Source: Alphaproteobacteria bacterium
Lineage (GTDB): Bacteria > Pseudomonadota > Alphaproteobacteria > MPNO01 > UBA830
Reading direction: 5' to 3'
NCBI GenBank assembly: GCA_964291215.2
Contig: OZ219790.1
Location: 2,176,001-2,240,000 of the forward strand
Length of the DNA stretch: 64,000 nt
Numbering within the stretch: the stretch's first letter is position 1; each line of letters opens with the position of its first letter. This document shows, piece by piece, positions 22,476-61,504 of this stretch. Both the position numbers and the translations under genes were made by a program. The notes under the pieces are model-generated. The model had not been told where the DNA came from. It did not search any database and saw only the letters and a list, made by a program, of their open reading frames with translations.

Positions 22476-22487
22476 GAGGTAACGCTC

Positions 22488-22776: not shown

Positions 22777-22861
22777 CTGGCCTGAACCCATCCTTGTTCT
22801 TCCGCAACCGGAACGTCGCGGCGTGGACATGCGGCCGACATCCAGGCTACATCGTAGCCTA

Positions 22862-25043: not shown

Positions 25044-26843
25044 ATGCTGCATCTCGTTGGCGAGACTATCGACAAGCACCGCGCGCAATATGGCGTGGAG
25101 ACCGGCAGGCTCGTCCGGATCATGCGGGGCATTTACGTGGCAGCAGAGGATGACGCCGACGCCGTCCTGTTCGATCATGCGCTGCGAATCGCTGCCTATC
25201 TGTACCCGAACACCTATCTTTGCGGAGCCAGCGCCGAGCGGCTCGCGCCGACGCCGGACAGGCGTCTATTCCTGAGTGGCCGACGCATCGCGCGTACGCG
25301 GCTGCGCGATCTGGAAATCATACAGACGCTCGCCCCTGACGCTCCGGAAACAGAGACCGTTCAGACCGTCGACCCCTCGGGCGACCTGAGGGTCAGGCGC
25401 TCGGCGCTGCGCTTTCGCTATCTGGAATCCTTCCGGCGGCGCAGTGAAGCTGGCGCCGCCATGACGATCGAAATGCAGACCGACATCGCCGCCCGTCTCG
25501 TCGAAGCCGCTGGCGGTAAACAGGGGCCAATCATCGAGTGTCGGCGACTGGCTCAGGCCAACGGGTGGCAGGCGGAGGCTGGACGGGCCGAAGCATTTTT
25601 CACCACACCACTCCGAGAGGCGCCGCAGCGGGCGACGCCGCTTCATGTCGGATGGCACGGCGAGGAGATCGGCGTCCTGTTTCATGACGGATCGGCTTGG
25701 CGCTGGGAGCCGACCGCCGCCAAAGGCGCAACACCGGTTCGGACCGGTGCGCCGGGCCGGCTTCCGCCCTTCATCGAAAGCCTGCTGCCGGAAGGATGGC
25801 TCGAACACGTATTGAAGCCAAAGTCAGAGCGGGAGCGAATATCCACCGGCAAGCGCTACATGTCGAACATCGTCGTCTCGGAGAACCCGGACGATCTTCG
25901 GGCTCTCCCCGCGGACGTGCTGGAAGGACAGCTCGATACATATGCTGACGGGAGCGTGTTCGCCGGCAGCTACGCCGGACCCGCGCCTTCCTTCGACGAG
26001 ACGCTGGAAGACCGCATGGCCGCCTTGTACGGATCGACGGTGACGCCGCGCCTGTCGGGCGTTCAGATCAAGGCGCCCATGAACCTCTCGCATGACGGTG
26101 TGTTGCGGTCGGCCGGGGATCGGGCCTTCACGCACATCCTTAAGCCTTCTCCGGGTGCCGGTTTTGAGGATCTCCCTCTGGTTGAAGCGGCATGTCTGGC
26201 GGCCGCTCGAGCCTGTGGGCTCGAAACGGCAGCCCATGCGATCGTCTCGATGCCGGATGATCTCCCCGACGCGCTGCTGGTCGAGCGCTTCGATATCCGG
26301 CGAGATCGTAACGACGGTCGCAGGATGGCGATGGAAGACATGGCGTCCGTTCGCGGCGTCGCGCCTTCGGAGAAATACGACGGTTCCATCGAGCAGGTCG
26401 CACGGGCGCTCCGGGGCGTCTCGAGCGACGCCAACGTGGATCTCGCAGCGTTGCTTGGCCGCACCGTGTTCGCCTGGCTCATAGCCGATGGCGACTTTCA
26501 CCTGAAGAACATGGCCGTTCTGAGGGTGGCGCCCGATGGTGCGGAAAATTTTGCATCCGTCCGGTTCGCGCCGACCTACGATGCCGTGACAACGCGGGTC
26601 TTTCCGGGGCTTGAAGACGACGACCTAGCGCTCTCGCTGGCGGGCAAACGTAATCGACTGTCGTCCAGCGACTTTGTCCGGGCGGGCGTGACGATGGGCA
26701 TTAGTGCGGAGTGGGCTCGCAATATCGTCGAGTCTTTGTGTGCTCGCCTGAGCACCCACCTCAGCGACCTCGGCCCTGGGTCCGATCGCGTCGATCGAGC
26801 GATCGAGATCTGGAAGAAGCGAATCGAGATCACCACCGGCTGA
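25044..26843 (+). CDS. HipA family Ser/Thr kinase with ~190-aa N-terminal extension (AbiEi/HTH-like) and HipA N-terminal (HipS-like) domain
   Basis: LPPFIESLLPEGW, RLSGVQIK, HILKP, LLVERFD, DGDFHLKN, FAPTYD; N-terminus GRLVRIMRGIYV. Confidence 0.88.
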   Translation: MLHLVGETIDKHRAQYGVETGRLVRIMRGIYVAAEDDADAVLFDHALRIAAYLYPNTYLCGASAERLAPTPDRRLFLSGRRIARTRLRDLEIIQTLAPDAPETETVQTVDPSGDLRVRRSALRFRYLESFRRRSEAGAAMTIEMQTDIAARLVEAAGGKQGPIIECRRLAQANGWQAEAGRAEAFFTTPLREAPQRATPLHVGWHGEEIGVLFHDGSAWRWEPTAAKGATPVRTGAPGRLPPFIESLLPEGWLEHVLKPKSERERISTGKRYMSNIVVSENPDDLRALPADVLEGQLDTYADGSVFAGSYAGPAPSFDETLEDRMAALYGSTVTPRLSGVQIKAPMNLSHDGVLRSAGDRAFTHILKPSPGAGFEDLPLVEAACLAAARACGLETAAHAIVSMPDDLPDALLVERFDIRRDRNDGRRMAMEDMASVRGVAPSEKYDGSIEQVARALRGVSSDANVDLAALLGRTVFAWLIADGDFHLKNMAVLRVAPDGAENFASVRFAPTYDAVTTRVFPGLEDDDLALSLAGKRNRLSSSDFVRAGVTMGISAEWARNIVESLCARLSTHLSDLGPGSDRVDRAIEIWKKRIEITTG

Positions 26844-40157: not shown

Positions 40158-40670
40158 TATCTTTATTGATTACCGGGACAACGGTAGCGACACGATCGTC
40201 GATTTTCAGGACAGCCGGGACGTCATCAACATCAGGGATGTGCAGGTGCAGACCCGTATTTCGTATGACGGTGGCCTCACCTGGGTCGGAGAAAATGTCG
40301 GAAGCGGGAGCTTCGACGATCTCACCATTGTCCAAATCGGGCGACGACACGGTCATCACCTACGATGGCGGGTCAATCATGTTGGAGGGGATCCAGGCGT
40401 CGCAAATCACCGAGGCCGATTTCGACTTCATTGGCTGAGGCGGCAATACGTCATGTCGCCCGAGGTGTGCGATGCGGGCGCACCTGCGGTGCAAGGTGAT
40501 CTCATGCTTGTTGATGTGATGTGATCGGAGTTCTGATGGGTGCAGTTCTCGCATGGCGAATGCAAGTCATTGATTTAACGCGGTTGTGTGGTCGCGAGGC
40601 AGCGGCAAAAACGGGTTTTCGTGACAATCGCCCGTTTCAGGACAGGATTTTGTCACGGGCCGAGCGGTGG

Positions 40671-42036
40671 AGGTGGGAACGCTCTGCACCGGAAGATGCG
40701 ATATGATATTGAAGATAATCCACAGCATCAGGAGCCCTCCCATGTCAGTTTCGCAGCCTTCCGCGTCGATCGATATTTCCGGCTTGCCGCCTCGGGTTGT
40801 CGAGGCGGTCACGCAGATAACCGCAGTTTGTCATCGGCAACTCGGTTCGCAGCGCTCTGCCGAGGCCTTTGAGGAAACGGAGCGGCGGGTGCGTGAGAGC
40901 GTGTACGCGCTGCGAGATCCTGGGCGCCGAGGCCCGGGACGATGGTGCGCCCCGGATCGAGCGGGACGGGCAGAGATGGTTCCGTGTGGCGCCGAAGACG
41001 ATGATGACCTCGCCCGGTGACCTTTTGGCGTGCGCGCTACCGCACCGGCGCACGCTGACGGTCGCTGATGCCGGTGGACGAAAGCCTCGTCGACGACTAC
41101 CTGACACGACCGGCGGCTTGGGCTGATGATGATGGGCGGCAGCGGAGGCGTTGTTCGGCAAGCTCGGTGCCATGACGCCAGCACCTTGCAGCACCTGACC
41201 ATGCAGGAGCGCCGGGAAAGTCTCGGCCCCGACATCCGTGAAGCGGAGGACATCCCGCAGGACGCGGTCACCGCCTCGCTGGACGGCGTCATGGTGGCGG
41301 GCCAGCGGGGACGGCCGTTCCGAGGCCTGCTGGCGCGAGGCGGCCTGTGGCACGGTCTCCTTCCACGACGGTGAGCGCCTGAAGACCGTCTGTCTCGGCC
41401 GCATGCCCGAGGGCCGAAAGTGCACACTGAAGGCGCAGCTCGCAAGCGAAGTCGCTCATATCAGGCGGAAACGTCCCGAGATCAGCGCCATCGCCGACAA
41501 CTGGACCTTCCTCGGGGGTCTCGAGCCCGAAACCGAGGTGATCGACTTCTGGCATGCCTGCGAGCATCTGCGCGTGGCGGCCGACCATGCAGCGGCGCCC
41601 TACTGGTTCGAGAAGTACCGCGAGATCCTGCGTCACGCCCCCCGCGGCATCGACAGGGTGATCCGGGCGCTGCGCCACCTTCGCGACACCGCGACGCCAA
41701 CATCAACAGGGAACTGTCCTTCTTCCGCAAGCATCGCCACCGCATGCGCTACCACGCGCTGAAGCAACCGGCTCGGGAATTGTCGAGGCGGCAAACAAGA
41801 CCCTCGTCACACAGCGCATGAAACGCTCCGGCATGCGCTGGCGCATCGTCGGCGGACAATCACCTTCCGCGCCCTGCTTGAAGCCAGCCGCTTCGAGAGC
41901 GCGTGGACGGCCATGATCGGTGCAGACGACGCACCAGCCAACGACAACATCAGCCCAAATCACACCCCGGCACTGGCCGCATGAGATGAACAAGTGGTAC
42001 TGAGCCTGCAACTGTGCCATACGAAACTCCCACCCC
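40671..42036 (+). mobile_element. ISKra4-like transposase element, degraded
   Basis: SLDGVMV, WREAACGTVS, IDFWHACEHL, GSGIVEAANKTLVTQRMKRSGMRW in shifting frames. Confidence 0.8.
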
Positions 42037-42697
42037 TAAAAAAAGAAATCAAGCCGTAGCTGAAGCAGTACTGGTGCATTCCACCGCACCGGAGCGCACA
42101 GTTCGTGGCGGCGGACGTGCTTGACATTTATCAGCGGGACTTTGCCAGGGACGAGGTGCTGGTGTGCATGGATGAAACCAGCCGGCAGCAGACGAAGGAA
42201 CCCCCCCGGTCAGCCGGAGGTGGTCGACTATGAATATGAGCGCAACGGCACGGCCAACCTCTTCCTGGCCTTTGCGCCCAACGAGAACTGGCGCACGGTG
42301 AAAGTCACCGACCGCCGCGGGACTGGACGCACTTCATCCGGGAGCTTGCCGACGACCATTTCCCCGACAAGAAGATCGTGCTGGACAATCTGAACACGCA
42401 CAGTCACTGTATGAAGCCTTCGAGCCCGAGGAGGCGGGTGCGAAAGCGGTTCGAGTTTCGCTACACGCCGAAGCACGGAAGCTGGCTCAACATGGCCGAA
42501 ATCGAGATCGGTGCGCTATCGCGGCAGTGCCTTCGGCGACGCATTCCCGACCGCGACACCATGCTGCGGGAGACGGCGGCGTGGGTGGAACGGCGCAATG
42601 CGGCCGATGTCACTGTCGACTGGCGTTTCACGACGAAGGATGCCCGGACGAAACTGAAGTCTCTATATCCATCATTACAATAATGTCATACTGCTAG
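42037..42697 (+). mobile_element. IS630 family element, 3' half, degraded (copy A)
   Basis: A-run, YWCIPP, VCMDE, DYEYERNGTANLF, LDNLNTH, YTPKHGSWLNMAEIE; ends at CTAG 42694-42697. Confidence 0.9.
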
Positions 42698-42842
42698 GGC
42701 GAGTGAAGGCCAGGTACTCGATGTCAGCGGGATCGCCGACATCAGGCCAAAACCGCACTTCCAGATCCGGCAGTTCGGCACTGATCGCCGCGCGCCAATC
42801 CGCGCCCGTTCCCATCAGGAGGTTGCAAATCAGAAGCGCCAT
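42694..42842 (-). pseudogene. 2-hydroxyacid dehydrogenase (GhrA-like) N-terminal fragment cut by IS630
   Basis: MALLICNLLMGTGADWRAAISAELPDLEVRFWPDVGDPADIEYL ends at the IS630 CTAG. Confidence 0.65.
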
Positions 42843-43109
42843 GGTCCGGCCGCCCCGAGCGCGTACCGTGCGGCGACGTATCGATATCGTCAGTCACGGC
42901 TTCCTCGAGCCCCGGGACCGTCGAAGAGAGGCATACCGAAGACGCAGATCGCGGCGATCATCCGCCAGACACAACCGGCTGGTCGCGATCGACGGAAACG
43001 CGCGTGACGCCGGATGCATCGCACGCCCCCGGCGCGGCAGACACCGGCAGCAGAGGGCCGCGGTCGCCGCCGGGAAGCGCGGCAACAGCTCGGTCTCCCG
43101 CAGCGGCGG

Positions 43110-43883
43110 TCAGAGGAAGCGGCGCACCGGCCGGGTGTTCAGAGGCTGGACCGGCCGGGCGTTCGACGGATAGATCCGGCCGAAGGCATCGATCTGGCTG
43201 CGCGAGACGGCGATCGGATCCATCATCACGACCCAGCTCACGATCTCGCTACAGGGCGGCGTGGTCAGCGAACCCTCATAGCGGAAATACGCCCGCCGCT
43301 CGGGAAGCAGTCCCGCCGGATCGACGAGGCTGGTGCCCGTCCGCCGGCCGCCCGGTGCCGGGAGATCCTCCCAGAGCGCGGCGACGACCGAGTTCGCGGC
43401 GCCCTCCGAGAGGAACGCGCCGACGACGCCAAGATCCCCCTCCGCCGCACGGTGCACGAAATGCACCTCCATCGCATGGCGGGATCCGCCGACGGTATGC
43501 TCGGCGGGATGATGGAAGTGGAACTGCGTGAGCTCGAACCGGCGGCCCTCGAGAACCATCGAACTGCCCGGCGCCGCGTTTGCCTGAATGGTGTGGCCGG
43601 TATTCACCACCTCAAGCGGGAAGGCTCGCCACGAGAGGTCCATCCTGCCCGGCACCATCGCCGCGCCCGGCGCTAGGTCGATGGGCGACTGCCGTTTTCC
43701 CGTCCCGCACGCCGCGAAGGACTGATCGAGCCGCTCCCAACGCCCAGGGCCCGTATCTCCCTCGTATGACCAGTCCACATCCGTCTCGGCGGCGGCAGAC
43801 GCTACCGCCGCGCAAGCCGGACACTCCATCAACCCGTTTGCCGCAAGAGCCTTCAACATCCACCACCTGTCGCTGAACACCAT
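43110..43883 (-). CDS. Alpha-class carbonic anhydrase
   Basis: WSYEG, QSPIDL, QFHFHHPAEH, EVHFVH, YEGSLTTPPCSE, NARPVQPLN. Confidence 0.95.
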   Translation of the reverse strand: MVFSDRWWMLKALAANGLMECPACAAVASAAAETDVDWSYEGDTGPGRWERLDQSFAACGTGKRQSPIDLAPGAAMVPGRMDLSWRAFPLEVVNTGHTIQANAAPGSSMVLEGRRFELTQFHFHHPAEHTVGGSRHAMEVHFVHRAAEGDLGVVGAFLSEGAANSVVAALWEDLPAPGGRRTGTSLVDPAGLLPERRAYFRYEGSLTTPPCSEIVSWVVMMDPIAVSRSQIDAFGRIYPSNARPVQPLNTRPVRRFL

Positions 43884-44181
43884 GGTTGCACCACTGTCAT
43901 CGTTTCCTCCAGATCATCCCCGAATTTGCCGTCGACGGCCAGTCAATGCAACCGCCCGCGTACAACTCCGCAAGGTATTCCCGCGCTAAATTCTGTTTGA
44001 TTTTTCGTAACTGCCCAGGTCTGATTTCGGCAAGTGCTCACAGGCGGTGGATTGATGGTTCCGGTGTGGCGGCGCCGAGGAGGGATTTCACAAGCGCAGT
44101 TTCGGGATCAGCTGGATGGAGTCGGGGTGGGCCAGCGTTTCGAGGACATTCAAGCCCCTTTCAAACAGTCATGCTTTACTC

Positions 44182-44513
44182 GTGCCTGCCCAAAAATGCA
44201 CGACCGCGCGATTCTATTGGCGAAATCGTGATATAGAGGGGACGAAGAATCCCGCTTTGGGGCGGGAATTGACCAATCAGACTAGGAATCCGCCGGATTT
44301 TCGGAAAACTTCGCAAGAATTGCCACGCGAAACGTTATCCGCCCGCAGCTGGAATTGGGCTAGGTTGCGCCGGATTCTCGGTTGGAAGGGCCCTGTGCCG
44401 CTAAGAATCGGCAGGAATCCCCCTGGAAACGGAGCACCCGGAGGCTCCGGGAGTGGATCAAACCCGAAATTTCGCCGGAGGGTCAGCCAAAACGGTCATT
44501 TCCACGCAGGCAC
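44182..44513. mobile_element. Non-coding MITE-like IS derivative
   Basis: Imperfect TIR GTGCCTGCCCAAAAATG / CATTTCCACGCAGGCAC; right end coincides with the truncation of the recombinase gene. Confidence 0.55.
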
Positions 44514-45200
44514 TAACTCTCCGAAGCCGCGACGCGTACCTTGCTAAGCCGCGCTCTGGCCGAGGTCCGAATCAATGACCACAATGCGATCGTCCGGCCA
44601 GCCCGGTTCGCGGGCACGGTCCGCCAGCCGGTATTGACGCTCGCGAGATTCCCGGTTCTTCAGGACCTGGTTCTGCGTCGACTGACGTACATGGACCGCA
44701 GCCGAGCGCTCAAGGTGCCGGTTCGTGATCCGCGATGACCGGCTCATCGGACCTCCCCCCTCCGCTTCGCTTGTCCGACCATCAGCTCCGCCAGCTCCCG
44801 CACCAGCGCCTCCCGATCCGGTGGCGGAACCCGGAGCGATTTCTCCACACGTTCCTCCCACTCCAGAAGCGCCAGCAGCGACAGTTCCTGATCCCTGTCA
44901 ATCCGTCGCCTCCAGACGCCGCTCCAACTCATCGAGCAGAGTACGCAGCCTGATAAAGTCCGACAACTCGCCGAGCAGTTCCGGCCCAACCGAACTCCGC
45001 GCCTCAAGGCTCGTCCACATCGCAGGAATCCACATGCGGGTGCCGTCCGGCAGTTCAACATGCAGGTTCAGCCGGTGATGACTGCCGCCGCCCGCCGTCG
45101 CGCGATCACCTTGACCTCCTGGTCGTCGAACGGATGCCGGAAACGGCGCATGAACACCGGCCCAAAAGGCCGGGGATGCTGAAGTGGTGCAGTAGGAAGG
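44514..45200 (-). mobile_element. Relic of a large serine recombinase element (small DUF5372/Y4bD-like ORF, small ORF, recombinase 5' end)
   Basis: ITNRHLERSAAVHVRQSTQNQV..ESRERQY..VIDSDLGQS..GFGELV (44514-44747, internal stop); upstream LPDGTRMWIPAMWT. Confidence 0.7.
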
Positions 45201-45206
45201 CTCGTT

Positions 45207-45754
45207 TGAAAACATGAACCACCGCCAGAGAGATTGCGTCTTCGGCGAGGACGCCTGCCTGACCCGCCCCGCAAACTGCGCCAGCCTCGACAACATCGCG
45301 CTCGCGGCAGGACTTTCCCACGCTGCATTCGATCTTGCCGCCTGTTGATGGAGAGAGGTTGCACAGGCCTAACCTGGCCGCGAGGTCGTCCACGGGTCGC
45401 CGCAACTGGAAATCCGGCAATACGCGGAAACTTGTGCCCCGCTCAGCGGTCATTCGAAACGTCAACCACAGCGTGGGAAAGTCCTGCGCTCGCGGTGATC
45501 TTCGCCAACCGACGCGAGAGCCTCGCCGAAACACGGCGGCGGCTCGACCGCCGGGAAGCCGTCGCAGCCCTGAGCGCCAATGGTGTCCGGCCGATTCCCG
45601 GACGCCGTCCACATCCCGAAAACAACCCTCCCACGCGCCGGCAACGCCGCCGGCGACGACCGCGGACGGCCCCGAAGCCAGAAAACCCGGCACGCTGTGA
45701 AACCTCCGGACAGCAGAAGACAGCAAAATTGAATGCAGCGTGGGTAAGGCCCTG
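45207..45754 (+). mobile_element. ISAs1 family transposase 3' remnant with right end
   Basis: ENMNHRQRDCVFGEDACLTR..NCASLDNIALAVIF; end CAGCGTGGGTAAGGCCCTG. Confidence 0.75.
45308..45486. mobile_element. 179-bp MITE with ISAs1-type ends
   Basis: Perfect 18-bp TIR CAGGACTTTCCCACGCTG; 9-bp TSD CGCTCGCGG at 45299-45307 and 45487-45495. Confidence 0.9.
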
Positions 45755-45879
45755 CAGCGGGGATTCCAGGCGGTTGCAGCGACCGCGGGATAGCGGGCAC
45801 AACGATAACAATGACTTGCAAAGCGCAACCGCGGCCCCCGCGATCGCACCCCATGGTCCGCACCGAAAACGAACACAAA

Positions 45880-46150
45880 TTTCTCTCCACAGGTTTAACC
45901 CTTTACCGTCCTGTCAAGCAGTTTTTTTGACCGACAACGAAAAAAATCTCCGAAAATTACGCTCTGGGCCGCTTGTTTCGGGCCGCGGGCACGGTTACAG
46001 TTTGCTACATACTCACCTACGGTCAATCAAATTCAATAAGGAGCCAAAAAGGCCATGTCAAAACAAATATAATGGAGGGTAAAATTTTTGCTATCAAGCA
46101 ATGATTCATATCAATATACAAGATGACGATGAGATGAAGAGACATTCCCA
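45880..46150 (+). promoter_or_regulatory. AT-rich upstream region of the rhodanese-dnaA unit
   Basis: Marked AT enrichment against a GC-rich background; no perfect DnaA box seen. Confidence 0.4.
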
Positions 46151-46615
46151 ATGAACGCCACAAGCCAGCCAAATCAGACCAACCCTGCCAGCCGCACCGC
46201 GGGTTACGCTGGCGAGATCAGTGTTGGCGAGTTGTGGGACGCTCTCGGATCGGCGCCGGACGCGACGCTTGTCGATGTGCGTACGCGGGCCGAATGGAAC
46301 TTCGTTGGCGTTCCCGAACTGTCGGAGCTCAACAAGGCGCCGGTCTTCGTCGAATGGCAGACCTATCCGGCAATGGACATCAACCCCGCCTTCGTCGAGA
46401 CGGTGGAGGCGGCAGTCACCGACCGCAACGCTCCCATCTTCCTGCTGTGCCGGTCAGGGGCGCGTTCGCGGGCAGCAGCGATCGCCCTTACCGAGGCCGG
46501 CTACAGCAACTGCTACAACGTGACCGAAGGTTTCGAGGGGCCGCCGGATGCGGAGAGGCACCGCGGCGGGACGACCGGATGGAAGGCGCAAGGCCTTCCC
46601 TGGGCACAGGCCTAG
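46151..46615 (+). CDS. Rhodanese-like domain protein
   Basis: LVDVRTRAEWNFVG, LCRSGARS, GFEG, GWK. Confidence 0.9.
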   Translation: MNATSQPNQTNPASRTAGYAGEISVGELWDALGSAPDATLVDVRTRAEWNFVGVPELSELNKAPVFVEWQTYPAMDINPAFVETVEAAVTDRNAPIFLLCRSGARSRAAAIALTEAGYSNCYNVTEGFEGPPDAERHRGGTTGWKAQGLPWAQA

Positions 46616-46619
46616 TCGA

Positions 46620-48035
46620 ATGGCCGGACCGCGAACCGACGGCGATATTCACGCGAATTGGACCTCCGTTCGCGGCGTTCTGCGTTCAGAGCTTGGAGAG
46701 CCGAGCTACAACGCATGGATCAAGCCGCTGGTGCTGCTCGGCTGCGCGGGCGGTACCGTCAAGCTGGCGCTGCCGACGCGCTTCATGCGCAACTGGGTCA
46801 TCAGCCACTACGGCGAGCGCCTGCAGGAGCTTTGGACGGAAAACGGCCGCGGGGTCGCCGCGGTCGAGATCGTGGTCGTCGCCCAGTCGGTCAGCGCCGC
46901 CGGCACGGAGACGCGCGCCCTGCAGCCGGCCGGACCGCAGGCAAGAACGACCGACCGCGCCATCCGGGAAGAACCGTCCATGGAGACCCAGGGTGGCGAT
47001 GTAGGCAACTCGCCGCTGGACCAGAACTACACCTTCGAGAACTTCGTGGTCGGAGACTCGAACCGACTGGCGCACGCCGCCGCCTCGCGAGTGGCGGACT
47101 CGCCGACGCTGCTCACGAACTACAACCCGCTCTACCTCTACGGAAGCGTCGGCCTCGGCAAAACCCACCTGATGCATGGCATCGCATGGCGGATACGCAG
47201 GAACCAGCCGGACCGCAAGGTCGTCTATCTGTCGGCCGAACGCTTCATGAACACCTTTGTGCGAGCGCTTCAGGAACGCCGCATCATGGGATTCAAGGAC
47301 CGCTACCGGTCCATCGATGTCCTGATGATCGACGATTTCCAGTTCATCTGCGGCAAGGGGCGGACGGAAGAGGAGTTCTTTCACACGCTCGACGAGCTGA
47401 TGAACAGGAACCGTCAGATCGTCATTTCCGCCGACACCGCGCCGTCCGCGCTCCCCGATATCGGCGAGCGCCTCCGCTCGAGACTGGGATCCGGCCTCGT
47501 GGCGGACATTGGCGCGACCACGTACGAGCTCCGGCTCGATATCTTGCGCAGCGTCGACCGGACCCACGCTACCAAGGCACCCGAAACGGTTCTTGAGTTC
47601 CTCGCGCAGCGCATCGCCTCCAACGGGCGCACGATCAAGGGTGCGCTCAACCGCCTGGTCGCGCACGCCGAGTTGCTTGGCGGAGACATCACGATCGAGC
47701 GCAGCCAGGAGGTGCTGCACGACCTGATGAAGACCGGTGACCGCCGGATAACCATCGAGGAGATCCAGCGGCGAGTTGCAGAGCATTTCAACGTCACCAT
47801 CGCCGACCTGCATTCGGTGCGCCGGGCGCGCGTCGTCGTCAGGCCCCGGCAGATCGCGATGTATCTCGCGCGCCAGCTCACCGAGCGGTCGATGCCCGAA
47901 ATCGGGCGCCAGTTCGGCGGGCGCGACCACACCACCGTTCTGCACGCGGTCAGGAAGGTCGAGGAGCTGAAATCCAGGGAGTCCTCCGTCGCCACGGATG
48001 TCGACACCCTCCGCCATGTCCTGGAGAACCGATGA
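46620..48035 (+). CDS. dnaA: Chromosomal replication initiator DnaA
   Basis: YTFENFVVG, NPLYLYGSVGLGKTHL, IDDFQF, RPRQIAMYL, GGRDHTTVLHA. Confidence 0.98.
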   Translation: MAGPRTDGDIHANWTSVRGVLRSELGEPSYNAWIKPLVLLGCAGGTVKLALPTRFMRNWVISHYGERLQELWTENGRGVAAVEIVVVAQSVSAAGTETRALQPAGPQARTTDRAIREEPSMETQGGDVGNSPLDQNYTFENFVVGDSNRLAHAAASRVADSPTLLTNYNPLYLYGSVGLGKTHLMHGIAWRIRRNQPDRKVVYLSAERFMNTFVRALQERRIMGFKDRYRSIDVLMIDDFQFICGKGRTEEEFFHTLDELMNRNRQIVISADTAPSALPDIGERLRSRLGSGLVADIGATTYELRLDILRSVDRTHATKAPETVLEFLAQRIASNGRTIKGALNRLVAHAELLGGDITIERSQEVLHDLMKTGDRRITIEEIQRRVAEHFNVTIADLHSVRRARVVVRPRQIAMYLARQLTERSMPEIGRQFGGRDHTTVLHAVRKVEELKSRESSVATDVDTLRHVLENR

Positions 48036-48441
48036 ACGCGTCATGACCAGCCGGCGCTACGGGGCGCGAGGCGACCGATTCGGCCGCCCGCAACGCAGGA
48101 CGGCGCTGGCGTATCGGGTCTGTGACCGACAGCGGTAATCCGGTTTCGCGGTTTTCGTCTCCACTTGACCGCCATCTGCTTTCAGCATTGAAAATCAACA
48201 TGTTAGGGTACGCCAATGATGTCTTCGCTGCCATGGGCTGCGGGCAGGGCGGTGGTCGGGAGGCACCATGGCCGCTGGCACCGAAGCGCCGACAGCCGTG
48301 AACCTTGACTGAAAACGCATTCTGCACGACAATTCTGCAAACGTCGTGCCTGCATCCGGTGGCCCAACGAAGCGCCGGGTGCGCCGTCGCGCCGAGGCGT
48401 CGGCAGGGCCCTAAATTTTCCGCAAGAACCGGTCCGGATAC

Positions 48442-49560
48442 ATGCAACTCAACATCGAACGCGGCACCATCCTGAGAGCGTTGTCCCATACGCAGGGTGT
48501 CATTGAGCAGCGCAACACGATCCCCATCCTGTCGAACGTCCTGCTGCAAGCGACCGACGGCTCACTTCGCCTCACTGCTACCAGCATGGATCTGACCGTC
48601 GTCGAGGTCATCGAGGCGAATGTCGTCCAAGAGGGCGCAGTCACCGTGTCGGCGCAGATGCTGCATGATGTCGTCCGCAAGCTGCCCGAAGGATCGGAGG
48701 TCCACATCCAGTCGGACATCGAGACCGGCCGGCTCGCCATCAATTCCGGCCGCTCCAGGCTCCAGCTGACCACTCTGCCCGACTCGGACTTCCCTGCCGT
48801 CCAGGAAGACGACCTTCCCCACAGCTTCACGATTTCGGCGGATACGCTCCTGCGCCTGATCAACCGGACGCACTTCGCCATGTCGAACGAGGAGACGCGC
48901 TACTATCTCAACGGGCTGTATCTGCACGCCACGCCGTCCGAGGGTGCCGATGTACTGCGCGTCGTGGCCACCGACGGACACCGGCTCGCCCGGTTCGAGG
49001 TGCCGATTCCCGACGGCGCCGCCGGGATGCCGGGCGTCATCGTGCCGCGCAAGACCGTCACGCAGATCCGGAGACTGCTCGACGAGACGTCCGAGGATGT
49101 CGGGGTCGCGCTATCGGATACCAAGATCCGCTTCAGGTTCGAGAATATCGAACTCGTCTCCAAACTCATCGACGGCACCTTTCCCGACTACAACCGCGTC
49201 ATCCCGGTCAACAACGACAAGAGCCTCGAAGTCAGCAGGAAGGATTTCGTCAAGGCGGTGGATCTCGTCTCCACGATCTCGAACGAACAGAGCCGCGCCG
49301 TCAAGTTCGCCGTTGATTCCGGCATCCTGATGCTGACGGCGAACAACCCGGACAGCGGCAGCGGGCAGGAAGAACTCGATGTGCAGTATCAGCACGACCC
49401 CATCGAGATCGGCTTCAACTCGCGTTACCTCCTCGACATCACGCAACAGATGGATGGTGACGACACGAGGTTCCTGATCTCCGACGAGGCATCACCCACG
49501 ATCGTGCAGGATGTCAGCGATTCGAGCGCGCTCTACGTGCTGATGCCAATGCGCGTCTGA
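48442..49560 (+). CDS. dnaN: DNA polymerase III beta clamp
   Basis: TIPILSNVLL, EETRYYLNG, VATDGHRL, LIDGTFPDY, VLMPMRV. Confidence 0.98.
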   Translation: MQLNIERGTILRALSHTQGVIEQRNTIPILSNVLLQATDGSLRLTATSMDLTVVEVIEANVVQEGAVTVSAQMLHDVVRKLPEGSEVHIQSDIETGRLAINSGRSRLQLTTLPDSDFPAVQEDDLPHSFTISADTLLRLINRTHFAMSNEETRYYLNGLYLHATPSEGADVLRVVATDGHRLARFEVPIPDGAAGMPGVIVPRKTVTQIRRLLDETSEDVGVALSDTKIRFRFENIELVSKLIDGTFPDYNRVIPVNNDKSLEVSRKDFVKAVDLVSTISNEQSRAVKFAVDSGILMLTANNPDSGSGQEELDVQYQHDPIEIGFNSRYLLDITQQMDGDDTRFLISDEASPTIVQDVSDSSALYVLMPMRV

Positions 49561-49570
49561 GGATCGGGCC

Positions 49571-53217
<3,647 letters not shown>

Positions 53218-53252
53218 ACCGAAACCAAGAGCGCCTGTCCGGGAAAAAAGGC

Positions 53253-54480
53253 GGTACTGTAACTTGATGTCTGGAAATTTGTCTGAGGTTTGCGCTTTGA
53301 GGCGTTTCACTGGGGGGCTAGCCCCCCCCAGTGAAACGCGGCGCCATCGTACTATCCCATGGAGTTGGAAAACCTTCATGGAGGAAGCGAATGGACCTGC
53401 GACACACTACGACGATCGGGACTGTTTTGGAACATCTGATCGCAAACGGAGCAACGGATCTGGGGCGGGTCTTTGGCCAGCTCTTCGAGCTTGCGATGCA
53501 AATCGAGCGCGAGCAGTACTTGAAAGCGGGCCACCGGACACCGGAGCGACAGGGCCAACGGCTACAAGCGGATCGACACCCCCACTGTTACCGTTCAGGT
53601 GCCAAACGGTCACGGGGACGACCCGTCCCCAGTCGCTTGAACGCGGCCAGCGATCTTCTCGCGCCGTAGCCGAGATGTACATCAAGGGTGTTTCCACGCG
53701 GCAAGATGTAATGCGCGAGTTCGGGAGCCTGTCCTCTTCTCAGGTCAGCCGGACCACCAAGTTGCTCGATGAAGAACTCGCCGCGCAACCGGCCCCTGAT
53801 GAACTACCTGATCCTGGATGCGCGCTACGAAAAAGCCCGCCATGACGGCGTTGTGCGCGATGTTGCAGTGCTCTCGGCCATCGGAATAGGGGCTGCAGGC
53901 ACGTTCTGGGGCTCTCTGTGGCGCTCTCCGAGGCCGAGGTCCATTGGAGAGCCTTCCTGGAAAGCTTGCTAGCCCTGCATGGTACGACCTTCATCGTCTC
54001 GGATGCCGGGCTGAAAGCAGCACGACGCGCGGTGCTGGGCGCGGCGACGTGGCAGCGCTGCCAGTTCCACCTGGCGCAAAACGCCGTGCACCGAACAATG
54101 ACATCAGGAAACGTATTGGAAAACAGCTCGGAGCCATGCGTCCTCACTCCAAACCGCCGAGGCTGAACTGGGCGCCCTCGTGGCCAGCGACAAGCATCCA
54201 GGCTTCCTGGCTGGAAAAGAATGCGGGGCTCGCTGTCTTCACCTTGCCCGATGCTCACCGCAAACGTATGCGAACCTCGAACGGTATCGAGCGACCGATC
54301 CAGCAAGAGCTCAAGCGGCGCACCTCCAAAGTCAGGGTCTTTCCGAACCTCGCCTCGTTGGAGCGCCTCTCAACCGCGGTCCTCATCGACGAAAAATGGG
54401 AAACCGAAACCAAGATCAAATGGGAACAGCTCGATGACTGAGAGTTTCACGAAAATTTCCAGACATCAGGTTGCGTAATC
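53253..54480 (+). mobile_element. IS256 family element, heavily microdeleted
   Basis: TIR GGTACTGTAACTTGATGTCTGGAAATTT / AAATTTCCAGACATCAGGTTGCGTAATC; EMYIKGVSTR, YLILDARYEK, WQRCQFH, RTSNGIER..ELKRRT in shifting frames (53391-54441). Confidence 0.93.
53302..53339. repeat. Near-perfect palindrome in the IS256 left end
   Basis: GCGTTTCACTGGGGGG-CTAG-CCCCCCCAGTGAAACGC-type hairpin centred on CTAG. Confidence 0.9.
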
Positions 54481-55744
54481 GGTCGGGCCGGCGGTACCAC
54501 CACGACTACACCGAAGCCGACCATGTCGAACTCCTTGAACTGGGTCTGCCGTGTCAGGTAATGGTCTCGGGCCGCCCCTCGGCGTTGTACGACGACCTGC
54601 TGCGGGACTGGGCCGCATCGCCGAGCTGCTGGAACGCCCGGCGCTGCATGTCGACGAAACCGGCTTCCGGGTCGACGGCAGGACCCGATCGCTCCATGTC
54701 GTCACCGACGGGACGTGCAAGTTCCTGCATCGCAAGCGCGGCAGGCAGGCGATCGAGGAGATCGGCATCAGCTACACCGGCACGCTGGACTGCCGGGCCG
54801 CATAGCTGGTCTGCGATCAATGCACCCACCAGCTGTGCGGGTCCCACCTGCTCAGGGAACTGACCTTCATCGTCGGCGCCAGTGGCTACCGCCGGGCACG
54901 CGTGATGAAGAAACTGCTGCCTGCCACAGGGTTGACAAGAGTGCATCCAGGACTCTGAACGAGGCCGACCGCCGCAGCGTCATCAAGCGCTACCGGACCA
55001 TCCTGACCCGGGGGCGAAGGAACTGCCTGAAATCCCGCCCCGACAGAAAGGAAAACGCGGACGGATTGCGAACGCGCACAACCTCCAGGAGCGTCTCGCA
55101 AGACATGAAGAGTTCGTCCTGCGCTTCATGAGCGACCCGGACGTCAGCTTCACCAACAACACCGGCGAGCAGAAAATCCGGATGGCAAAGGTCAAGGTGT
55201 CCGGATGCTTCCGAACCCGGCTCCACGCCGAGGCCTGGTGCCGAAGCTCAAGCTATCTCACCTCCATGGCCGCACTCGGCTACAGCCCGCTCGTCGCCAT
55301 CCGGGTCGCACTCGCCGGAAACGCCGCCGACATGATCAAGATGCACAACGCCAAACCCGCCTCTGCGGAGGGGCGAGGAGATACCCCGACGCCAGGAAAG
55401 ATCCGGCGTGCCGGGCGCGGTGCCTGACCGCAATGAGCCGCGTCGGGATTCTCGTGACCTCCCGGAAACCGCGCTCCGAGCGGGTCCCGCTTCCGGACGG
55501 TACGACGCATGGTGTGCCGGCACAGCGCGAGAAGGAAACAGACCTTCGGATTGGTCTCGACATGGTGCGAATCGCGCGCAACGGCGCTCTCGATGTGGCC
55601 GTGACATTCAGCCAGAATCAGGATTTGGCGGAGGCCGCCCAGGAAGTTCACACTAACCGAATCGATCTGCAGTGTCAGATCTCCACGAAAACCCGTTCGT
55701 TGCCTACCCCGACATCAAGCCGGAACCAGGGGGTGAGCAGTTAC
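54481..55744 (+). mobile_element. IS66 family element, 3' part, with NYN-domain fragment before its right end
   Basis: LHVDETGFRV, HQLCGSHLLREL, FTNNTGEQKIRMAK; end GGGGGTGAGCAGTTAC; 55651-55744 is an inverted near-copy of 38566-38660. Confidence 0.85.
55380..55650 (+). pseudogene. NYN/LabA (PIN-like) domain fragment
   Basis: REKETDLRIGLDMV..DVAVTFSQNQDLAE resembles the EKGxD..D..SxDxD motifs. Confidence 0.6.
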
Positions 55745-57097
55745 TCTCCATGAATGTTTACAACTCCATGGGATAGTACGATGGCGCCGCGTTTCACTGG
55801 GGGGGCTAGTAGTCTAACATTATTGGATTGATGAATATAGTGACTTCAGTTTCGTCCGGGCATCCTTCGTCGTGAAACGCCAGTCGACAGTGACATCGGC
55901 CGCATTGCGGCGCTCAACCCACGCCACGGTCTCCCGCAGCATGGTGTCGCGGTCGGAAATGCGTCGCCGAAGGCACTGCCGCGACAGCGCGCCGATCTCG
56001 ATTTCGGCCATGTTGAGCCAGCTTCCGTGCTTCGGCGTGTAGCGAAACTCGAACCGCTTTCGTACCCGCCTCTTCGGGCTCGAAGGCTTCATACAGTGAC
56101 TGTGCGTGTTCAGATTGTCCAGCACGATCTTCCTGTCGGGGAAATGGTCGTCGGCAAGCTCCCGGATGAAGTGCGCCCAGTCCCGCGGCGGTCGGTGACT
56201 TTCACCGTGCGCCAGTTCTCGTTGGGCGCAAAGGCCAGGAAGAGGTTGGCCGTGCCGTTGCGCTCATATTCATAGTCGACCACCTCCGGCTGACCGGGGG
56301 ATGCGGGTTTCCTGCTGCCGGCTGGTCTCCAGCACCTCGTCCCTGGCAAAGTCCCGCTGATAAATGTCAAGCACATCCGCCGCCACGAACTGTGCGCTCC
56401 GGTGCGGTGGAATGCACCAGTACTGCTTCAGCCACGGCTTGATCTCTTTTTTTTAGCGTCTTCCTGACCGTCTCTTCTGAAATGCGCTCGACAATCTCCA
56501 TCTCCACCAGACGGCCGGCAAGCAGCTTCAGCGTCCACAGCCCTCGGGCGGGGACGAACAGTGCGACCAGCTTCGCCTCCATCGCCCCCGTTTTGGCCGG
56601 CGGTTCACCTGCTCCTTGCGGCTGAGGGCGGCCCCTCCAGAACGCAGCGCTTGCGCAAACGCTCGACCGTCGCCGTGCCCAGCCCTTGCGCAATGTCGGC
56701 ATCGACAAGCCGAGCGCCCCCTCAACATCAGGATTTGTGCCCGGCGCCAGGCAGCCCCGGTGCCGTCGACAATTGCCTTCAGATCCTGGCGCTCCTGCGC
56801 TGAAAGGGTCACGCGGTAGAGCTTCCTGCCCCGAGAGTTGGCCATATGCGCCGCTTCTGTCATTGCGCCGAAGACCTGCGGGCATGCCCGTTGTCCGGAC
56901 CTGCGCATGGGGCTGCCTGCCTGTTCGGCATCTGCCCGTGTGGATATCGGTACTGTCCAGATTCCAACGAACGCCGACACGGAAATACTACCCACAAAAA
57001 AACCATCAATACAATGCCGGTGGACTACTAGCCCCCCCAGTGAAACGCCTCAAAGCGCAAACCTCAGACAAATTTCCAGACATCAAGTTACAGTACC
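55745..57097 (-). mobile_element. Second IS256 left end (inverted), split by IS630
   Basis: 55745-55809 plus 57028-57097 together are the reverse complement of about 53253-53383. Confidence 0.9.
55810..57027 (-). mobile_element. IS630 family element, full span, degraded (copy B)
   Basis: CTAG on both sides (55806-55809, 57028-57031); TIR core TAGTAGTC; YRVTLSAQER, WTLKLLA, A-run slippery site, DDE-region motifs. Confidence 0.92.
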
Positions 57098-58129: not shown

Positions 58130-61100
58130 ATGGTAGCCGCACTCGGCAGGCCGGGCCGGAGCGAGTATTATCTCGACAGTCAGCAAACGCTCCACGGCCC
58201 GCTTGACGGCGCCAGGGGGCGGCGCGAGGCCGCGGGGCGGTGGTGGAACCCGGCTGGCCTGTTCGGCCTCGCCGACCGAGATCCGGTCGAGGACGCCGCG
58301 TTCGCCAACCTCCATCGCGGCGTCTCCCCAGACGGGCGCACAGCGCTGGTGCGGAACGCTGGCGGACGCCGACGCAGCGGCATCGATCTTGTGTTCCCCG
58401 CCGACAAGTCGGTCTCCGCGCTGTGGGCGATTGCCGATCCGGAGACCGGCCGGCTGATCGAGGAAGCGCATGATGACGCCGTCCGTCTCGCGCTCATCGA
58501 GATCGTCGCGAAACACGCGATGTCGGGCGTGAGGATCCATATCGGCACCTGGGTGGAGTTCGTTCCCGCAGACGTCATGGGAGCCACGTTCCGGCACGGG
58601 TCGAGCCACGCCCACGACCCCCATCTTCACACCCATTGCGTGATCTTCAACCTTGCGCGGCTTCGCGACAGCAATCGTTGGTTCGCCACAACCAAAAACG
58701 CTCTCCATTGCTGGCTGAGGGCCGCGGGAGCGGCCTACCGGCACGCACTGGCCTGGAACCTCCGCGAGCGCATCGGCGTCCGCTGCGAACCCTACGGCCG
58801 CAACGACGCCCTCATGCGCATCGCGGGCATGCCTCGCGGGCTGATCCGCGAGTGGTCGAAGCGCAAGCAGATGATGGAAAACGCATTGGAGTTGGCCGGG
58901 GTGCAGGCGCGCAGCGCAACAGGCGCACAGACCACGATGATCGCCAAAGCCACACGCGACGGAGGAGACCGGCACCCGGACCTCAAGGAACTCCGCCCCG
59001 TATGGGCGCGTGAACGGAAGTCCTGGGTCTCCGACCCGGCCCGCCTCATGGCCTCGCTGTCGAAGCCCGACGAGCGGTTCCCGTCACCGAGCCGCTACGA
59101 GATCCTCCGTAAGCTGAAACGTGTACCCGACGATCTCGCGGCGCGGCACTCCCCATTCTCCCATCCCGACCTGGTCGAGAGCGTCTGCAGCGTCTCCGCC
59201 GGTTACATCGACTGGCGCGACGCAAGCGGGTGGATCGCGGAGGCAATCCGCCGCTCTGATGTCGTCCGAGTCGACAATCCTGAGCGGTCGCCCGCGGCCC
59301 GCGCCGACCAGATGCATTCGCGGCTTTATGCCCTCGAAAACACCGCCGAATCCGGGAACGCGCTCAGGGAGGCGGCGCGCAAGTTATCCCGGGACGCACG
59401 CTTCGCCGTACCGCAAGCCAGGGTCGAGGAGCGCATCCGGAGCCTCGACGCGGCCGGCTACCCGCTCTCGGCCGACGACATCGCGGCGATCCGCTACGTC
59501 ACATCGGGGCGCCGCATCGCAGTCATCGAGCTCGCGCCCGCGCTCGACCGCAGCCTCGCCCTGCGCCCGGCCGCCGACCTTCACCGCAACGAGGGCTACC
59601 GGGTGATCGGGGCGGCGGCCACGCTCCGCGCGGCGGCCGAGCTCCAGAATGAGACCGGCATCGCGTCGATGCAGATCAACCGGCTCCTGAAGATGAACGA
59701 CAAGCGCGCGCTCGACGACAACCGGGCCTGGGTATTCGTGATCGCCGATGCCGGCATCCTGCTTGAACGCCAGTTCCGAACGCTGTTTGCGCTCGCCGGA
59801 CGCTACTCGGCGAAGTTCATCCTGGTCGCGGAAGCGGGCCAGCGTCCGTCGCTTGTGGCGGCTCCCGGTCTCGGCCTCGTTACCGACGTCACCGGCTGCC
59901 TGCGTTCCTACTACCGACGGCTGCCCGGCGATGTTGTGTCCGAGGCCTTTTCCAATAATCGCGTTCGGCTCAGCAACGGGCTCAGGGAGACACTGGAGCG
60001 CACGGCCGGGGACTGGGACCAACATAGGAGGACCTTTCCCCGAGATTCGGTCGCGGTCGTCGCCCGCACCCGCAAGGAAGAGAAGGTTCTGACCCATATG
60101 CTTCGCACGCGCCTGCTCGGCCCCGCCGCCGAAGGTGCACACGCCTGCATTGAGGTCCACCAGCACACCAAACTCACAGCGTACGGAAAATCCGCGCCGA
60201 TGGAAATCCGGGCCGGCGACCGACTGAGAATCGGCGCCACCCTGTGGGAGGCGCGCCTGTTCCGGGGCTCCGTGGTCACCGTCGAGGACATCGTCCCCAT
60301 CGCGTCAGTCACCGAAGAGACGCGTTTCCTCATCCGCGTAGCGACGCGCGAAGGCCGGCAGGTCGAGTTTTACCACGACGATGTCCGCGACGGGCATGGC
60401 GGCGTCCGCCTCGCGCACGGATACGCCTGCACGGTCGACGAACTGGTCGGCAGGTTCGATCGCATTTTCGCGTTGGCCGACGACGGGTGGCGGCGACACC
60501 AGCTCGAACGCATCGCGGCCTGCTGCCGTGTCCGGCCCCGAATCCATGTCAACCGCGAACAGCTGGCGGCCGCGTTCGGGGCACCGGCCGATGACGATAC
60601 GCTTCTCAACCGCCTGCGCCAGAGCTGGTCACTTACTGCCAGGAGCGGACAACCCTGCAGGGACCAGAAACTCCATCCCGACCGTCACGCCCATGCGGAA
60701 GGATGGCTTATAGCCAATGACGGCGGCGACGGAACGCTGCGGCAACTCGGACAGGACATCGCCCAGGCAAATCTCGACCTCCGTCACGGCGACACGGTCG
60801 CCGCCTTCGCCGCCGGCAGGGCCGCAGTGCTCGAGGAATGGGCGGCATGCCGCGAGCGCATCTCCGTCGACGGAGATGCAGCGTTGCTCGCGCCGTCGGT
60901 CGCCAGAACACTGCGCCGGCACAGGGCGCTGATCGACTCTCTCGAGACCCTGCCGCGGCGGTGGACACCTCTGGTGCAGCGGATGTTCGCGGCACGCGGC
61001 GACCTGGCACCAAACGACATTCGGAAGTTCGCCGCGCTCTACCGACGGCTGCGCGATCAACGGAGGATCGCAGCGGCGCGTCAGCTCCGGAACGAGACCG

Positions 61101-61504
61101 CCGGCGCAGACACCGCTTCCGTCGATGCGTGGCTCGCCGAAGTCGCGCGCCAGCGGCGGTTCCGCACCTTCGTGCTCAATGCCGTGGAGCACAACGCCGG
61201 GCGCGCATGCGAGATCCCGTCATGGCGGAACAGCGTGGCAGACGCCGAGCGGTTGATCGCCCGCGGCCGCGCCATCCTCGCCGCAAGCAGTCTGCCGCAA
61301 ACAGGCGATGCGGGACGCAGCGCGGTGCAAGCCGCCGTGGCGGTGCTCGAAGCGGAGCAGAGAGAAGACCTGTCGGTCCCCGGCCGCAGGCTCGAGCCCG
61401 CCCCCGACGCGGCGCCGCGCCAAGGTCTCGCTGCAGCGTTGGCGCAGGCGCACCGGCAACCCGAGAATCATCGCCTGGCCCGTGAAAGCTCTATCGCCTT
61501 CTGA
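58130..61504 (+). CDS. MobF (TrwC/TraA-like) relaxase with degenerate helicase region
   Basis: N-terminal EYY, DLVFPADKSVSALWA, H..DPHLHTHCVIFN, WSKR; helicase motifs altered (IELAPALDRS, ADAGIL, HGYACTV). Confidence 0.88.
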   Translation: MVAALGRPGRSEYYLDSQQTLHGPLDGARGRREAAGRWWNPAGLFGLADRDPVEDAAFANLHRGVSPDGRTALVRNAGGRRRSGIDLVFPADKSVSALWAIADPETGRLIEEAHDDAVRLALIEIVAKHAMSGVRIHIGTWVEFVPADVMGATFRHGSSHAHDPHLHTHCVIFNLARLRDSNRWFATTKNALHCWLRAAGAAYRHALAWNLRERIGVRCEPYGRNDALMRIAGMPRGLIREWSKRKQMMENALELAGVQARSATGAQTTMIAKATRDGGDRHPDLKELRPVWARERKSWVSDPARLMASLSKPDERFPSPSRYEILRKLKRVPDDLAARHSPFSHPDLVESVCSVSAGYIDWRDASGWIAEAIRRSDVVRVDNPERSPAARADQMHSRLYALENTAESGNALREAARKLSRDARFAVPQARVEERIRSLDAAGYPLSADDIAAIRYVTSGRRIAVIELAPALDRSLALRPAADLHRNEGYRVIGAAATLRAAAELQNETGIASMQINRLLKMNDKRALDDNRAWVFVIADAGILLERQFRTLFALAGRYSAKFILVAEAGQRPSLVAAPGLGLVTDVTGCLRSYYRRLPGDVVSEAFSNNRVRLSNGLRETLERTAGDWDQHRRTFPRDSVAVVARTRKEEKVLTHMLRTRLLGPAAEGAHACIEVHQHTKLTAYGKSAPMEIRAGDRLRIGATLWEARLFRGSVVTVEDIVPIASVTEETRFLIRVATREGRQVEFYHDDVRDGHGGVRLAHGYACTVDELVGRFDRIFALADDGWRRHQLERIAACCRVRPRIHVNREQLAAAFGAPADDDTLLNRLRQSWSLTARSGQPCRDQKLHPDRHAHAEGWLIANDGGDGTLRQLGQDIAQANLDLRHGDTVAAFAAGRAAVLEEWAACRERISVDGDAALLAPSVARTLRRHRALIDSLETLPRRWTPLVQRMFAARGDLAPNDIRKFAALYRRLRDQRRIAAARQLRNETAGADTASVDAWLAEVARQRRFRTFVLNAVEHNAGRACEIPSWRNSVADAERLIARGRAILAASSLPQTGDAGRSAVQAAVAVLEAEQREDLSVPGRRLEPAPDAAPRQGLAAALAQAHRQPENHRLARESSIAF

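Follow-up and report, generated by a model that had tools for sequence, protein, structure and literature searches.

Do short deletions strike the same spots again and again in diverged copies of a bacterial insertion sequence (IS)? This question is raised by a 64,000-nt stretch of DNA (the window; G000:C1:2176001-2240000) from an alphaproteobacterial genome of 6.15 Mb and two contigs that we call G000, in which two diverged copies of an IS630 element, A and B, lie on either side of dnaA and its neighbors and share five small lesions. An earlier note on this DNA had taken these lesions for parallel events of a sequence-directed erosion process and had proposed to align the IS copies genome-wide, to look for homoplasy on a substitution tree, to take stock of the repair genes, and to compare multi-copy with single-copy pseudogenes. 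We did this alongside four congeners (G001 to G004, with G003 and G004 in single contigs) and find that the repeats of G000 carry deletions of 5-7 nt that recur at homologous sites, a phenomenon that we consider real with little reservation. Among the five genomes compared, it is present in G000 and G002 and absent from G001, G003, and G004.

Copy A (42037..42697, + strand) is a 3' half that starts at an A-run frameshift site, its 5' half being displaced by the remnant of another element, while copy B (55806..57031, - strand) is full length, has an identical 9-nt terminal word at each end in inverted orientation, and carries 16 deletions of 5-14 nt relative to the long alleles of its family. 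Pfam matches to DDE_3 (42378-42683 in A) and HTH_32 together with the inverted ends place the family in IS630, and its long-allele frames are 48-52% identical to an intact homologue in G004. When their 3' halves are aligned, the codon changes between the two copies are 11 synonymous, 7 replacement, and 1 nonsense, close to an earlier hand count (about 11-12 synonymous versus 7 replacement or nonsense), and all five shared lesions are present in both. Labeled by the residues around them, these are FVAA^DVLD (42107..42115, + strand; 56376-56384 in B; 6 nt, microhomology 1; deleted in 36 of 56 copies), TDRR^DW (42313..42326, + strand; 56177-56190 in B; ca. 7 nt as inferred from the G004 homologue; short in 68/68 copies examined), KIV^LDNL (42374..42388, + strand; 56115-56129 in B; 6 nt, microhomology 3; deleted in 53/56), NTH^SLY (42399..42409, + strand; 56094-56104 in B; 7 nt, microhomology 3; 47/56), and EEA^RVRK (42431..42439, + strand; 56064-56072 in B; 5 nt in a tandem repeat; 47/56). 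They are deletions and not insertions elsewhere because long alleles in other copies restore the frame at four of the sites and the intact G004 homologue has the missing residues, including those of TDRR^DW; both reading frames are restored by long alleles except at this last site.

A and B thus share their lesions because most copies of the family do (majority alleles, 64-100%), and given that the copies are fine-scale mosaics this pair alone cannot demonstrate parallel origin. Similarly, the 12-bp loss of copy B at VCMDE is real but not private to it as had been thought: it appears to consist of two nested 6-nt events, the first of which is found in 49/56 copies, with A among the few that keep those 6 nt.

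Genome-wide, the family comprises 78 BLAST matches of at least 400 bp and at least 79% identity in G000, half copies included. When scored against a master of the longest alleles seen (with a few events split by the aligner), 55 near-full copies have 6-24 deletions of at least 4 nt each (mean 14.6) and a mean of 33 substitutions. Linkage between single-nucleotide polymorphisms (SNPs) drops from an r2 of 0.35 at <15 bp to 0.05 at 40-100 bp, i.e., decays within ca. 40 bp, which makes gene conversion a real and probably contributing process rather than the mere alternative that the earlier note had seen in it. The r2 between deletions and SNPs is 0.07 already at <15 bp. Placed on a substitution tree, 10 of the 13 deletions require roughly the number of changes obtained with shuffled labels while the remaining 3 have some signal, though this tree is weak (9/53 nodes at 0.9 or above) and circular as a control since it was built from common SNPs. 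The family also has local peculiarities. Its copies are often broken at the A-run frameshift site (42037-42050 in the window and about ten other copies) into separate 5' and 3' halves, as if other elements preferentially inserted there; around master positions 730-760 (near 42200 in the window), successive deletions in some copies made C-runs that later expanded to 10-18 C; and the last 190 bp at the 3' end (ca. 42500-42690) form a cold zone with dense synonymous polymorphism and no deletion of at least 4 nt in 68 copies.

The deletions stand out most clearly by their length. Among 3829 alignments from 400 of the 2005 repeat pieces of G000, gaps of 5, 6, and 7 nt number 3083, 6078, and 3575, compared to 2689, 921, 534, and 189 gaps of 1, 2, 3, and 4 nt and 593 and 247 of 8 and 9 nt, with a second bump at 12 nt. 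De-duplicated events keep this shape (41, 324, 728, 401, and 126 for 4 to 8 nt), and only 42/1429 of them could be insertions in the form of tandem duplications. For G002, G003, and G004, we used 400-kb samples. G002 has the same peak (56, 51, and 11 gaps of 5, 6, and 7 nt; 56, 44, and 7 events for junction analysis, with none of 4 nt), whereas G004 has an ordinary shape without any peak (87, 20, and 22 gaps of 1, 2, and 3 nt, then 4, 5, and 4 of 5, 6, and 7 nt). The sample of G003 held just 2 repeat pairs, and its status is therefore taken from its IS630 copies: five pairs there, like three pairs in G004, differ by 19-51 substitutions (2-4% divergence) and have zero gaps. The repeats of G001 are barely assembled (4 homologous segments, none without 5-7 nt) so that its negative status comes mainly from single-copy gaps. 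Neither G000 nor G002 has the power law with an excess of multiples of three that characterizes ordinary deletional bias; both peak at 5-7 nt and dip at 3-4 nt. How fast the process can run is illustrated by a young family of G002, in which the 1632 aligned columns of two copies (L215 and L220) contain 84 gap bases and 0 substitutions.

Could the gaps have been created by sequencing, assembly, or polishing in repeats, as had been considered from the outset? The signal is indeed strongest in repeats, and the haplotypes of single copies cannot be phased with their unique flanks in unitigs. However, unitigs of three runs (one of them from another strain) contain both alleles, the short one being more frequent; summed unitig depths for the long allele at 42112 are 848/7644, 457/3772, and 1518/19199, though these depths are crude and single copies unphased. 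Furthermore, 12 near-identical IS66 copies in G000 have no 5-7-nt gap, the diverged IS630 copies of single-contig G003 and G004 are gap-free, and three deletions (7, 7, and 5 nt relative to G001) in the single-copy spacer next to copy A (42846..43025) recur in unitigs of two runs, which align to the window there without any gap. A sequence motif at the junctions and recurrence across subfamilies would not be expected from an assembler either, and we reject an artefact as extremely improbable. The IS66-type family itself (G000 C2:1664918-1666306 and 11 further copies) is young, intact, and 99.2-100% identical beside older, eroded families, and its relatives at 84% identity do have 5-7-nt gaps, a contrast that could possibly serve as a clock for the erosion.

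Since conversion could explain sharing within a family, recurrence was tested between subfamilies too diverged for easy exchange. In G002, the deleted sites overlap at 7/15 (86% identity), 11/23 (78%), and 7/28 (78%) for three subfamily pairs, where chance would give 1.4-2.4 and a null anchored at AT 2.1-3.1 (for the 11/23 pair, 2.4-3.1 over the two nulls), and the letters deleted at shared sites often differ; four pairs involving a 3-site family had no site overlap. In G000, six subfamily pairs of 80-89% identity overlap at 26/60 sites compared to 8.8 expected, though some of them could still exchange. No IS family above 68% identity was found to be common to G000 and the 400 kb of G002. In addition, variants of 5, 6, and 7 nt that share one anchored edge are visible, with a small test yielding 14 such pairs in G000 (7 in C- or G-runs; purine-pyrimidine at the shared edge in 8/14 vs. 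5/28) and 1 in G002. These results support that the short deletions are real, recurrent, and sequence-directed, and the original proposal that they arise repeatedly at sequence-determined positions holds up.

They also bear on the view that every deletion had a single origin, through ordinary slippage or alternative end joining, and then spread by descent (with mobilization in trans) and deletion-biased conversion, without any site-directed recurrence. The mosaic copies are in line with this, as is the duplication of eroded copies as a whole (L215/L216), and Cordaux is said to have described gene conversion among dead IS copies in 2009. Short alleles are also frequent: at sites with at least 20 copies, 5-7-nt deletions are singletons in just 30/819 cases and the short allele is the majority at 57-69% of the 5-7-nt sites, while 1-nt gaps follow a neutral U-shape with 57/136 singletons. 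These frequencies would fit if hot sites are saturated, if conversion spreads short alleles preferentially, or if both apply. Yet single origins do not account for recurrence in subfamilies that are only ca. 75-80% identical with different letters deleted, for an AT anchor, or for length variants with one common edge, nor do they explain the 5-7-nt peak or why IS630 copies that are just as diverged have no gaps in G003 and G004. This view is largely refuted for G002 and very improbable overall.

At the junctions of G002, an AT dinucleotide is found at one edge, on one strand, in 69% of 96 events compared to 13% under the null. The wider motif is AT-H-N-R-R, with G avoided at +2 and purines favored at +4 and +5 relative to undeleted AT sites, and T is enriched at the second deleted position. 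The edge is looser in G000 (purine-T in 48% vs. 31%), where the motif score is 4.42 compared to 3.74 under the null across 1023 events and the motif is present in every copy-number class. Microhomology of at least 3 nt is enriched about 5-fold in G000 (ca. 26-31% vs. 6-9% expected), but 47-56% of the 5-7-nt events have 0-1 nt, and 82/107 events in G002 do so as well, which is near chance. Micro-repeats, originally proposed as the determinant, therefore favor deletions in G000 without being required as they would be at most junctions under slippage or alternative end joining; the constant features are the length of 5-7 nt and one anchored edge. Both strands are used, and motif orientation has no bias relative to the replichore in G002 (40 vs. 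42 and 17 vs. 18) or in G000, though copy inversion could blur it.

Several other rules were tried and rejected. Cutting centered on mismatches, as by EndoMS, had seemed attractive because four 7-nt IS630 deletions looked SNP-centered by eye, but no central excess exists genome-wide. A hairpin or tandem-junction rule gave no signal beyond imperfect microhomology and no difference in folding. A symmetric two-edge motif in G000, reminiscent of transposase targets, was dropped given the one-sided AT anchor of G002 and the fact that codon structure can mimic symmetry. Finally, loss of Okazaki or lagging-strand primers is contradicted by the missing strand bias and by intact PolA and RNase HI.

To narrow down the responsible enzymes, we searched 19 gene families in all five genomes. 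Open frames for MutS, MutL, RNase HI, RNase HII, XseA, TopA, PolA, RuvC, RecA, RecJ, DnaQ, and UvrC exist in each of them. Neither Ku nor an ATP-dependent ligase had a match in any, which leaves no sign of Ku-LigD non-homologous end joining (NHEJ). A topoisomerase of type IB (TopIB) was not found in G000 and RNase HII is intact there, contrary to what a TOP1-type process (TopIB, RNase H2 deficiency, 2-5 nt) would call for. Argonaute PIWI domains were found in 0/5 genomes, though short Argonautes with a divergent PIWI domain could escape this search, and NucS was not found in G000, where deletion centers have no excess polymorphism as EndoMS/NucS would predict. Reverse transcriptases are present in G000, G001, and G002, a pattern that does not fit the trait. 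The search also turned up two weak matches to the NucS_C domain in G002 only (L208 and L209), each adjoining an IS copy; 19 reverse-transcriptase matches in G000 that are multi-copy, often broken, not found in G003 and G004, and probably group II introns; and two tandem RNase HI domains in a single open frame of G003 (C1:4049618-4050616).

Only DarT, out of the 19 families, loosely tracks the trait. A leaky DarT2 toxin might ADP-ribosylate thymines in single-stranded DNA at forks or recombination intermediates, with the adduct blocking the polymerase and 5-7 nt being lost upon bypass or excision. The enrichment of T at the second deleted position would fit, and DarT2 adducts are reported to block extension and to drive homologous recombination in bacteria (PMC13368585, accessible part). 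A DarT-DarG pair is intact in G000 (L329, C2:100914-104528), directly after the specificity subunit of a type I restriction system. DarT is interrupted by a stop codon in G001, where the trait is absent, and has a match in G002, where it is present (further loci L330 and L331), with none in G003 and G004. However, the match in G002 covers just the C-terminal half and is fused to another fragment, with no DarG seen in the locus. The known target words TNTC, TCT, and TTT are not enriched at deletions in G000 or G002, the outcomes described in the accessible part of the same study are templated repair or substitutions with few indels (PMC13368585), and a single loose match is weak evidence when 19 families are tested in 5 related genomes. 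We thus consider this toxin a very improbable source of the deletions.

Whether the process acts specifically on repeats is harder to decide. Across the 841 of 900 sampled tiles that had matches, gaps of 5-7 nt per substitution increase from 0.07 in repeats with 2-10 copies to 0.27 in those with >80 copies whereas 1-nt gaps remain constant, and broken single-copy genes have 0-2 such deletions each compared to ca. 14 per IS630 copy. Single-copy events in G000 are also different in kind: they are rich in microhomology (at least 3 nt in 32/68) and have no edge motif (score 3.86 vs. 3.76 under the null, n=36). One broken single-copy gene encodes a cytochrome P450 next to rnhA (G000 C2:1968995-1970367); it is intact in G001 and disrupted in G000 by a stop codon and deletions of 5, 8, and 1 nt. 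As the best explanation, we suggest that losses of 5-7 nt recur at sequence-defined spots through a one-strand cut or skip during exchanges between repeat copies, which would also spread the short alleles. We see the chances of this proposal as evenly balanced, and with this we prefer coupling to recombination between copies over a uniform mutator filtered by selection.

Such a mutator would hit all DNA at one rate through an anchored 5-7-nt event, such as a polymerase that stalls at a modified base and skips or a nick closed across a gap, and IS elements would stand out simply as the main neutral DNA. Several observations weigh against a process coupled to repeats, and the single-copy gaps and the small G002 family among them also speak for a mutator. 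DNA of low or single copy number is under selection, which confounds the copy-number trend. Across 690,753 aligned non-repeat columns (from 983 kb out of ca. 5 Mb in the comparison with G001), 5-7-nt gaps make up 112/504 of those polarized to G000 but only 12/274 of those in G001 (p = 3.5e-12), and this excess means that repeats are not required. In G002, a young family for which no more than 6 close copies were found (40/119 candidates scored) is already heavily deleted, and the motif is as strong in G000 repeats of 4-6 copies as in those of >60 copies. Furthermore, the motif score has no predictive value for allele frequency (rho 0.05, n=599), the motif is not equally strict in G000 and G002, three of the six informative subfamily pairs in G002 have weak or non-significant overlap (4/15, p = 0.08-0.13; 2/15; and 5/23, p = 0.04), and none of the 19 gene families cleanly explains the distribution of the trait over G000 and G002.

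Single-copy DNA provides two more arguments for a genome-wide process. Among the in-frame deletions in 305 intact orthologues, 15 six-nt and 5 three-nt ones belong to G000 compared to 1 and 3 in G001, and 40 noncoding single-copy events cluster in spacers with 7 inter-event gaps of <140 bp. The dnaA-dnaN-recF-gyrB genes between the two IS630 copies (46548..53217, + strand), an internal control, are all intact, but the earlier statement that core genes are unaffected does not fully hold given these orthologues. Conversely, a uniform mutator is at odds with the microhomology-rich, motif-free nature of single-copy events, the low number of deletions per broken single-copy gene, the copy-number gradient, and the lack of any replichore strand bias. 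On balance, we regard it as possible but rather unlikely, and dependence on repeats, suggested by the gradient and by the motif missing from single-copy events, is clouded by the single-copy length excess and by selection.

If deletions are indeed coupled to exchanges between copies, they could come about as follows. A nick in one strand or a stalled polymerase would occur at the anchored purine-pyrimidine step (AT in G002, a looser R-Y step in G000), 5-7 nt would be removed or skipped, and the strand would be closed without fill-in, aided by pairing of 0-4 nt. The loop left on the opposite strand would evade MutS, which would set the sharp lower edge at 5 nt: MutS binds loops of up to four nucleotides (PMC8235422, accessible part), and this limit together with intact MutS and MutL would account for the jump in gap numbers from 4 to 5 nt. 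RecA-dependent exchange among the copies may both provide the substrate and lift short alleles to high frequency. The steep fall beyond 7 nt would need a length ruler, and a putative enzyme would set both this limit and the edge. The net outcome would be the irreversible inactivation of whole IS families by frameshift.

It is tempting to compare this to repeat-induced point mutation (RIP), which introduces C-to-T changes through a methyltransferase-like protein in the sexual stage of fungi. Both inactivate repeats preferentially, irreversibly, and with a local sequence preference, so the RIP-like, anti-transposon character suspected early on is fair with regard to effect and to concentration in multi-copy DNA. 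Unlike RIP, however, we see 5-7-nt deletions in a bacterium, single-copy and core DNA are also hit at lower density, and the dependence on homology may not be strict. Transcription-associated mutagenesis by topoisomerase 1 (TOP1-TAM, signature ID4) produces repeat-assisted deletions of 2-5 nt and needs a type IB topoisomerase and embedded ribonucleotides. It shares with our case deletions of set size with one sequence-defined edge on one strand that is closed across the gap, these strand steps being inferred here, but our deletions are longer, TopIB was not found, and RNase HII is intact. We tentatively propose, as an idea worth pursuing more than as a likely outcome, that this is a bacterial repeat-induced deletion system in which a host or mobile enzyme acting on paired repeats would cut at the AT or R-Y step and remove 5-7 nt, just beyond the range of mismatch repair, so that IS and group II intron families are frameshifted faster than they are point-mutated; it would be the deletion counterpart of fungal RIP, independently switched on in two sponge symbionts.

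Among bacterial precedents, deletions in pseudogenes follow a power law of sizes with an excess of multiples of three (3, 6, 9, and 12 nt), and 43% have microhomology (Danneels et al. 2018, PMC6054270, accessible part). This bias likewise concerns small deletions in neutral DNA of host-associated bacteria without Ku-LigD and favors 6 nt, whereas in our genomes lengths of 5, 6, and 7 nt dominate, 3 and 9 nt are rare, one edge is motif-anchored, sites recur, and deletions outnumber substitutions in G002. Alternative end joining of E. coli and Ku-LigD NHEJ also yield microhomology-assisted deletions, but the accessible part of the same paper reports no fixed length for them (PMC6054270), while our events have 0-1 nt of microhomology in about half of the cases, are near chance in this respect in G002, and occur in genomes where neither Ku nor an ATP-dependent ligase was found. 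As in the IS fossil record of Wolbachia, most copies are non-functional after bursts and young intact families coexist with old eroded ones; decay there proceeds by substitutions and deletions over time, with no sized or site-recurrent class described in the accessible text (PMC3205602). No bacterial deletion class of 5-7 nt with recurring sites turned up in our search of the accessible full-text literature, and the process is likely undescribed so far.

G000 and G002 are both swollen with IS elements (ca. 6.1 Mb each), and ca. 28% of G000 lies under 20-mers present at least 3 times. The best matches of the G000 GyrB protein are in alphaproteobacterial genomes (ca. 65-69% identity). Three sequencing runs from one host organism contain G000 DNA, as do sponge or marine metagenomes with small word shares, one sponge run carrying a relative that is ca. 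90% identical; G000 is a sponge-associated alphaproteobacterium. Within the window, multi-copy remnants of mobile elements upstream of copy A (40500..42036) are subject to the same erosion, with unitig alleles that are 5-6 nt longer at 40908, 41083, 41085, 41274, 41296, 41365, and 41479. Two open reading frames (ORFs) there have no Pfam match, and we take this remnant and the G002 families to be ISKra4-like from their protein motifs. Between gyrB and copy B lie Mutator/IS256-family and IS66-like remnants with fragmented reading frames (53253..55805). Copy B is flanked on both sides by one end sequence of another element in inverted orientation (55757-55805, 57004-57097, and 53253-53371), which suggests an IS-bounded inversion or a nested insertion. 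Farther away, the window encodes a TrwC relaxase-helicase (ORF of 1124 aa, 58130-61504) near the replication genes as well as RelB/YafQ and HipA toxin-antitoxin genes (22164-26843).

Compact bacterial genomes are usually explained by a deletional bias, although little is known about where this bias comes from at the molecular level and it is regarded as slow, with sizes that follow a power law. The class of deletions that we see has a set size, a motif at one edge, and a distribution limited to certain lineages, and in repeats it keeps pace with substitution or overtakes it. Two genomes have it switched on while three congeners, including G001 with 93% identity to G000 in its core genes, have it switched off, which offers a natural contrast for finding the gene behind it, and the gap-length spectrum among repeat copies is a simple screen for any long-read genome. 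If the process depends on repeats, it would be a mode of bacterial genome defense that is absent from current lists; if it acts genome-wide, it would be a new mutational signature that is invisible to intact MutS/L. In both cases, shared indels should not be relied upon as phylogenetic markers in such genomes.

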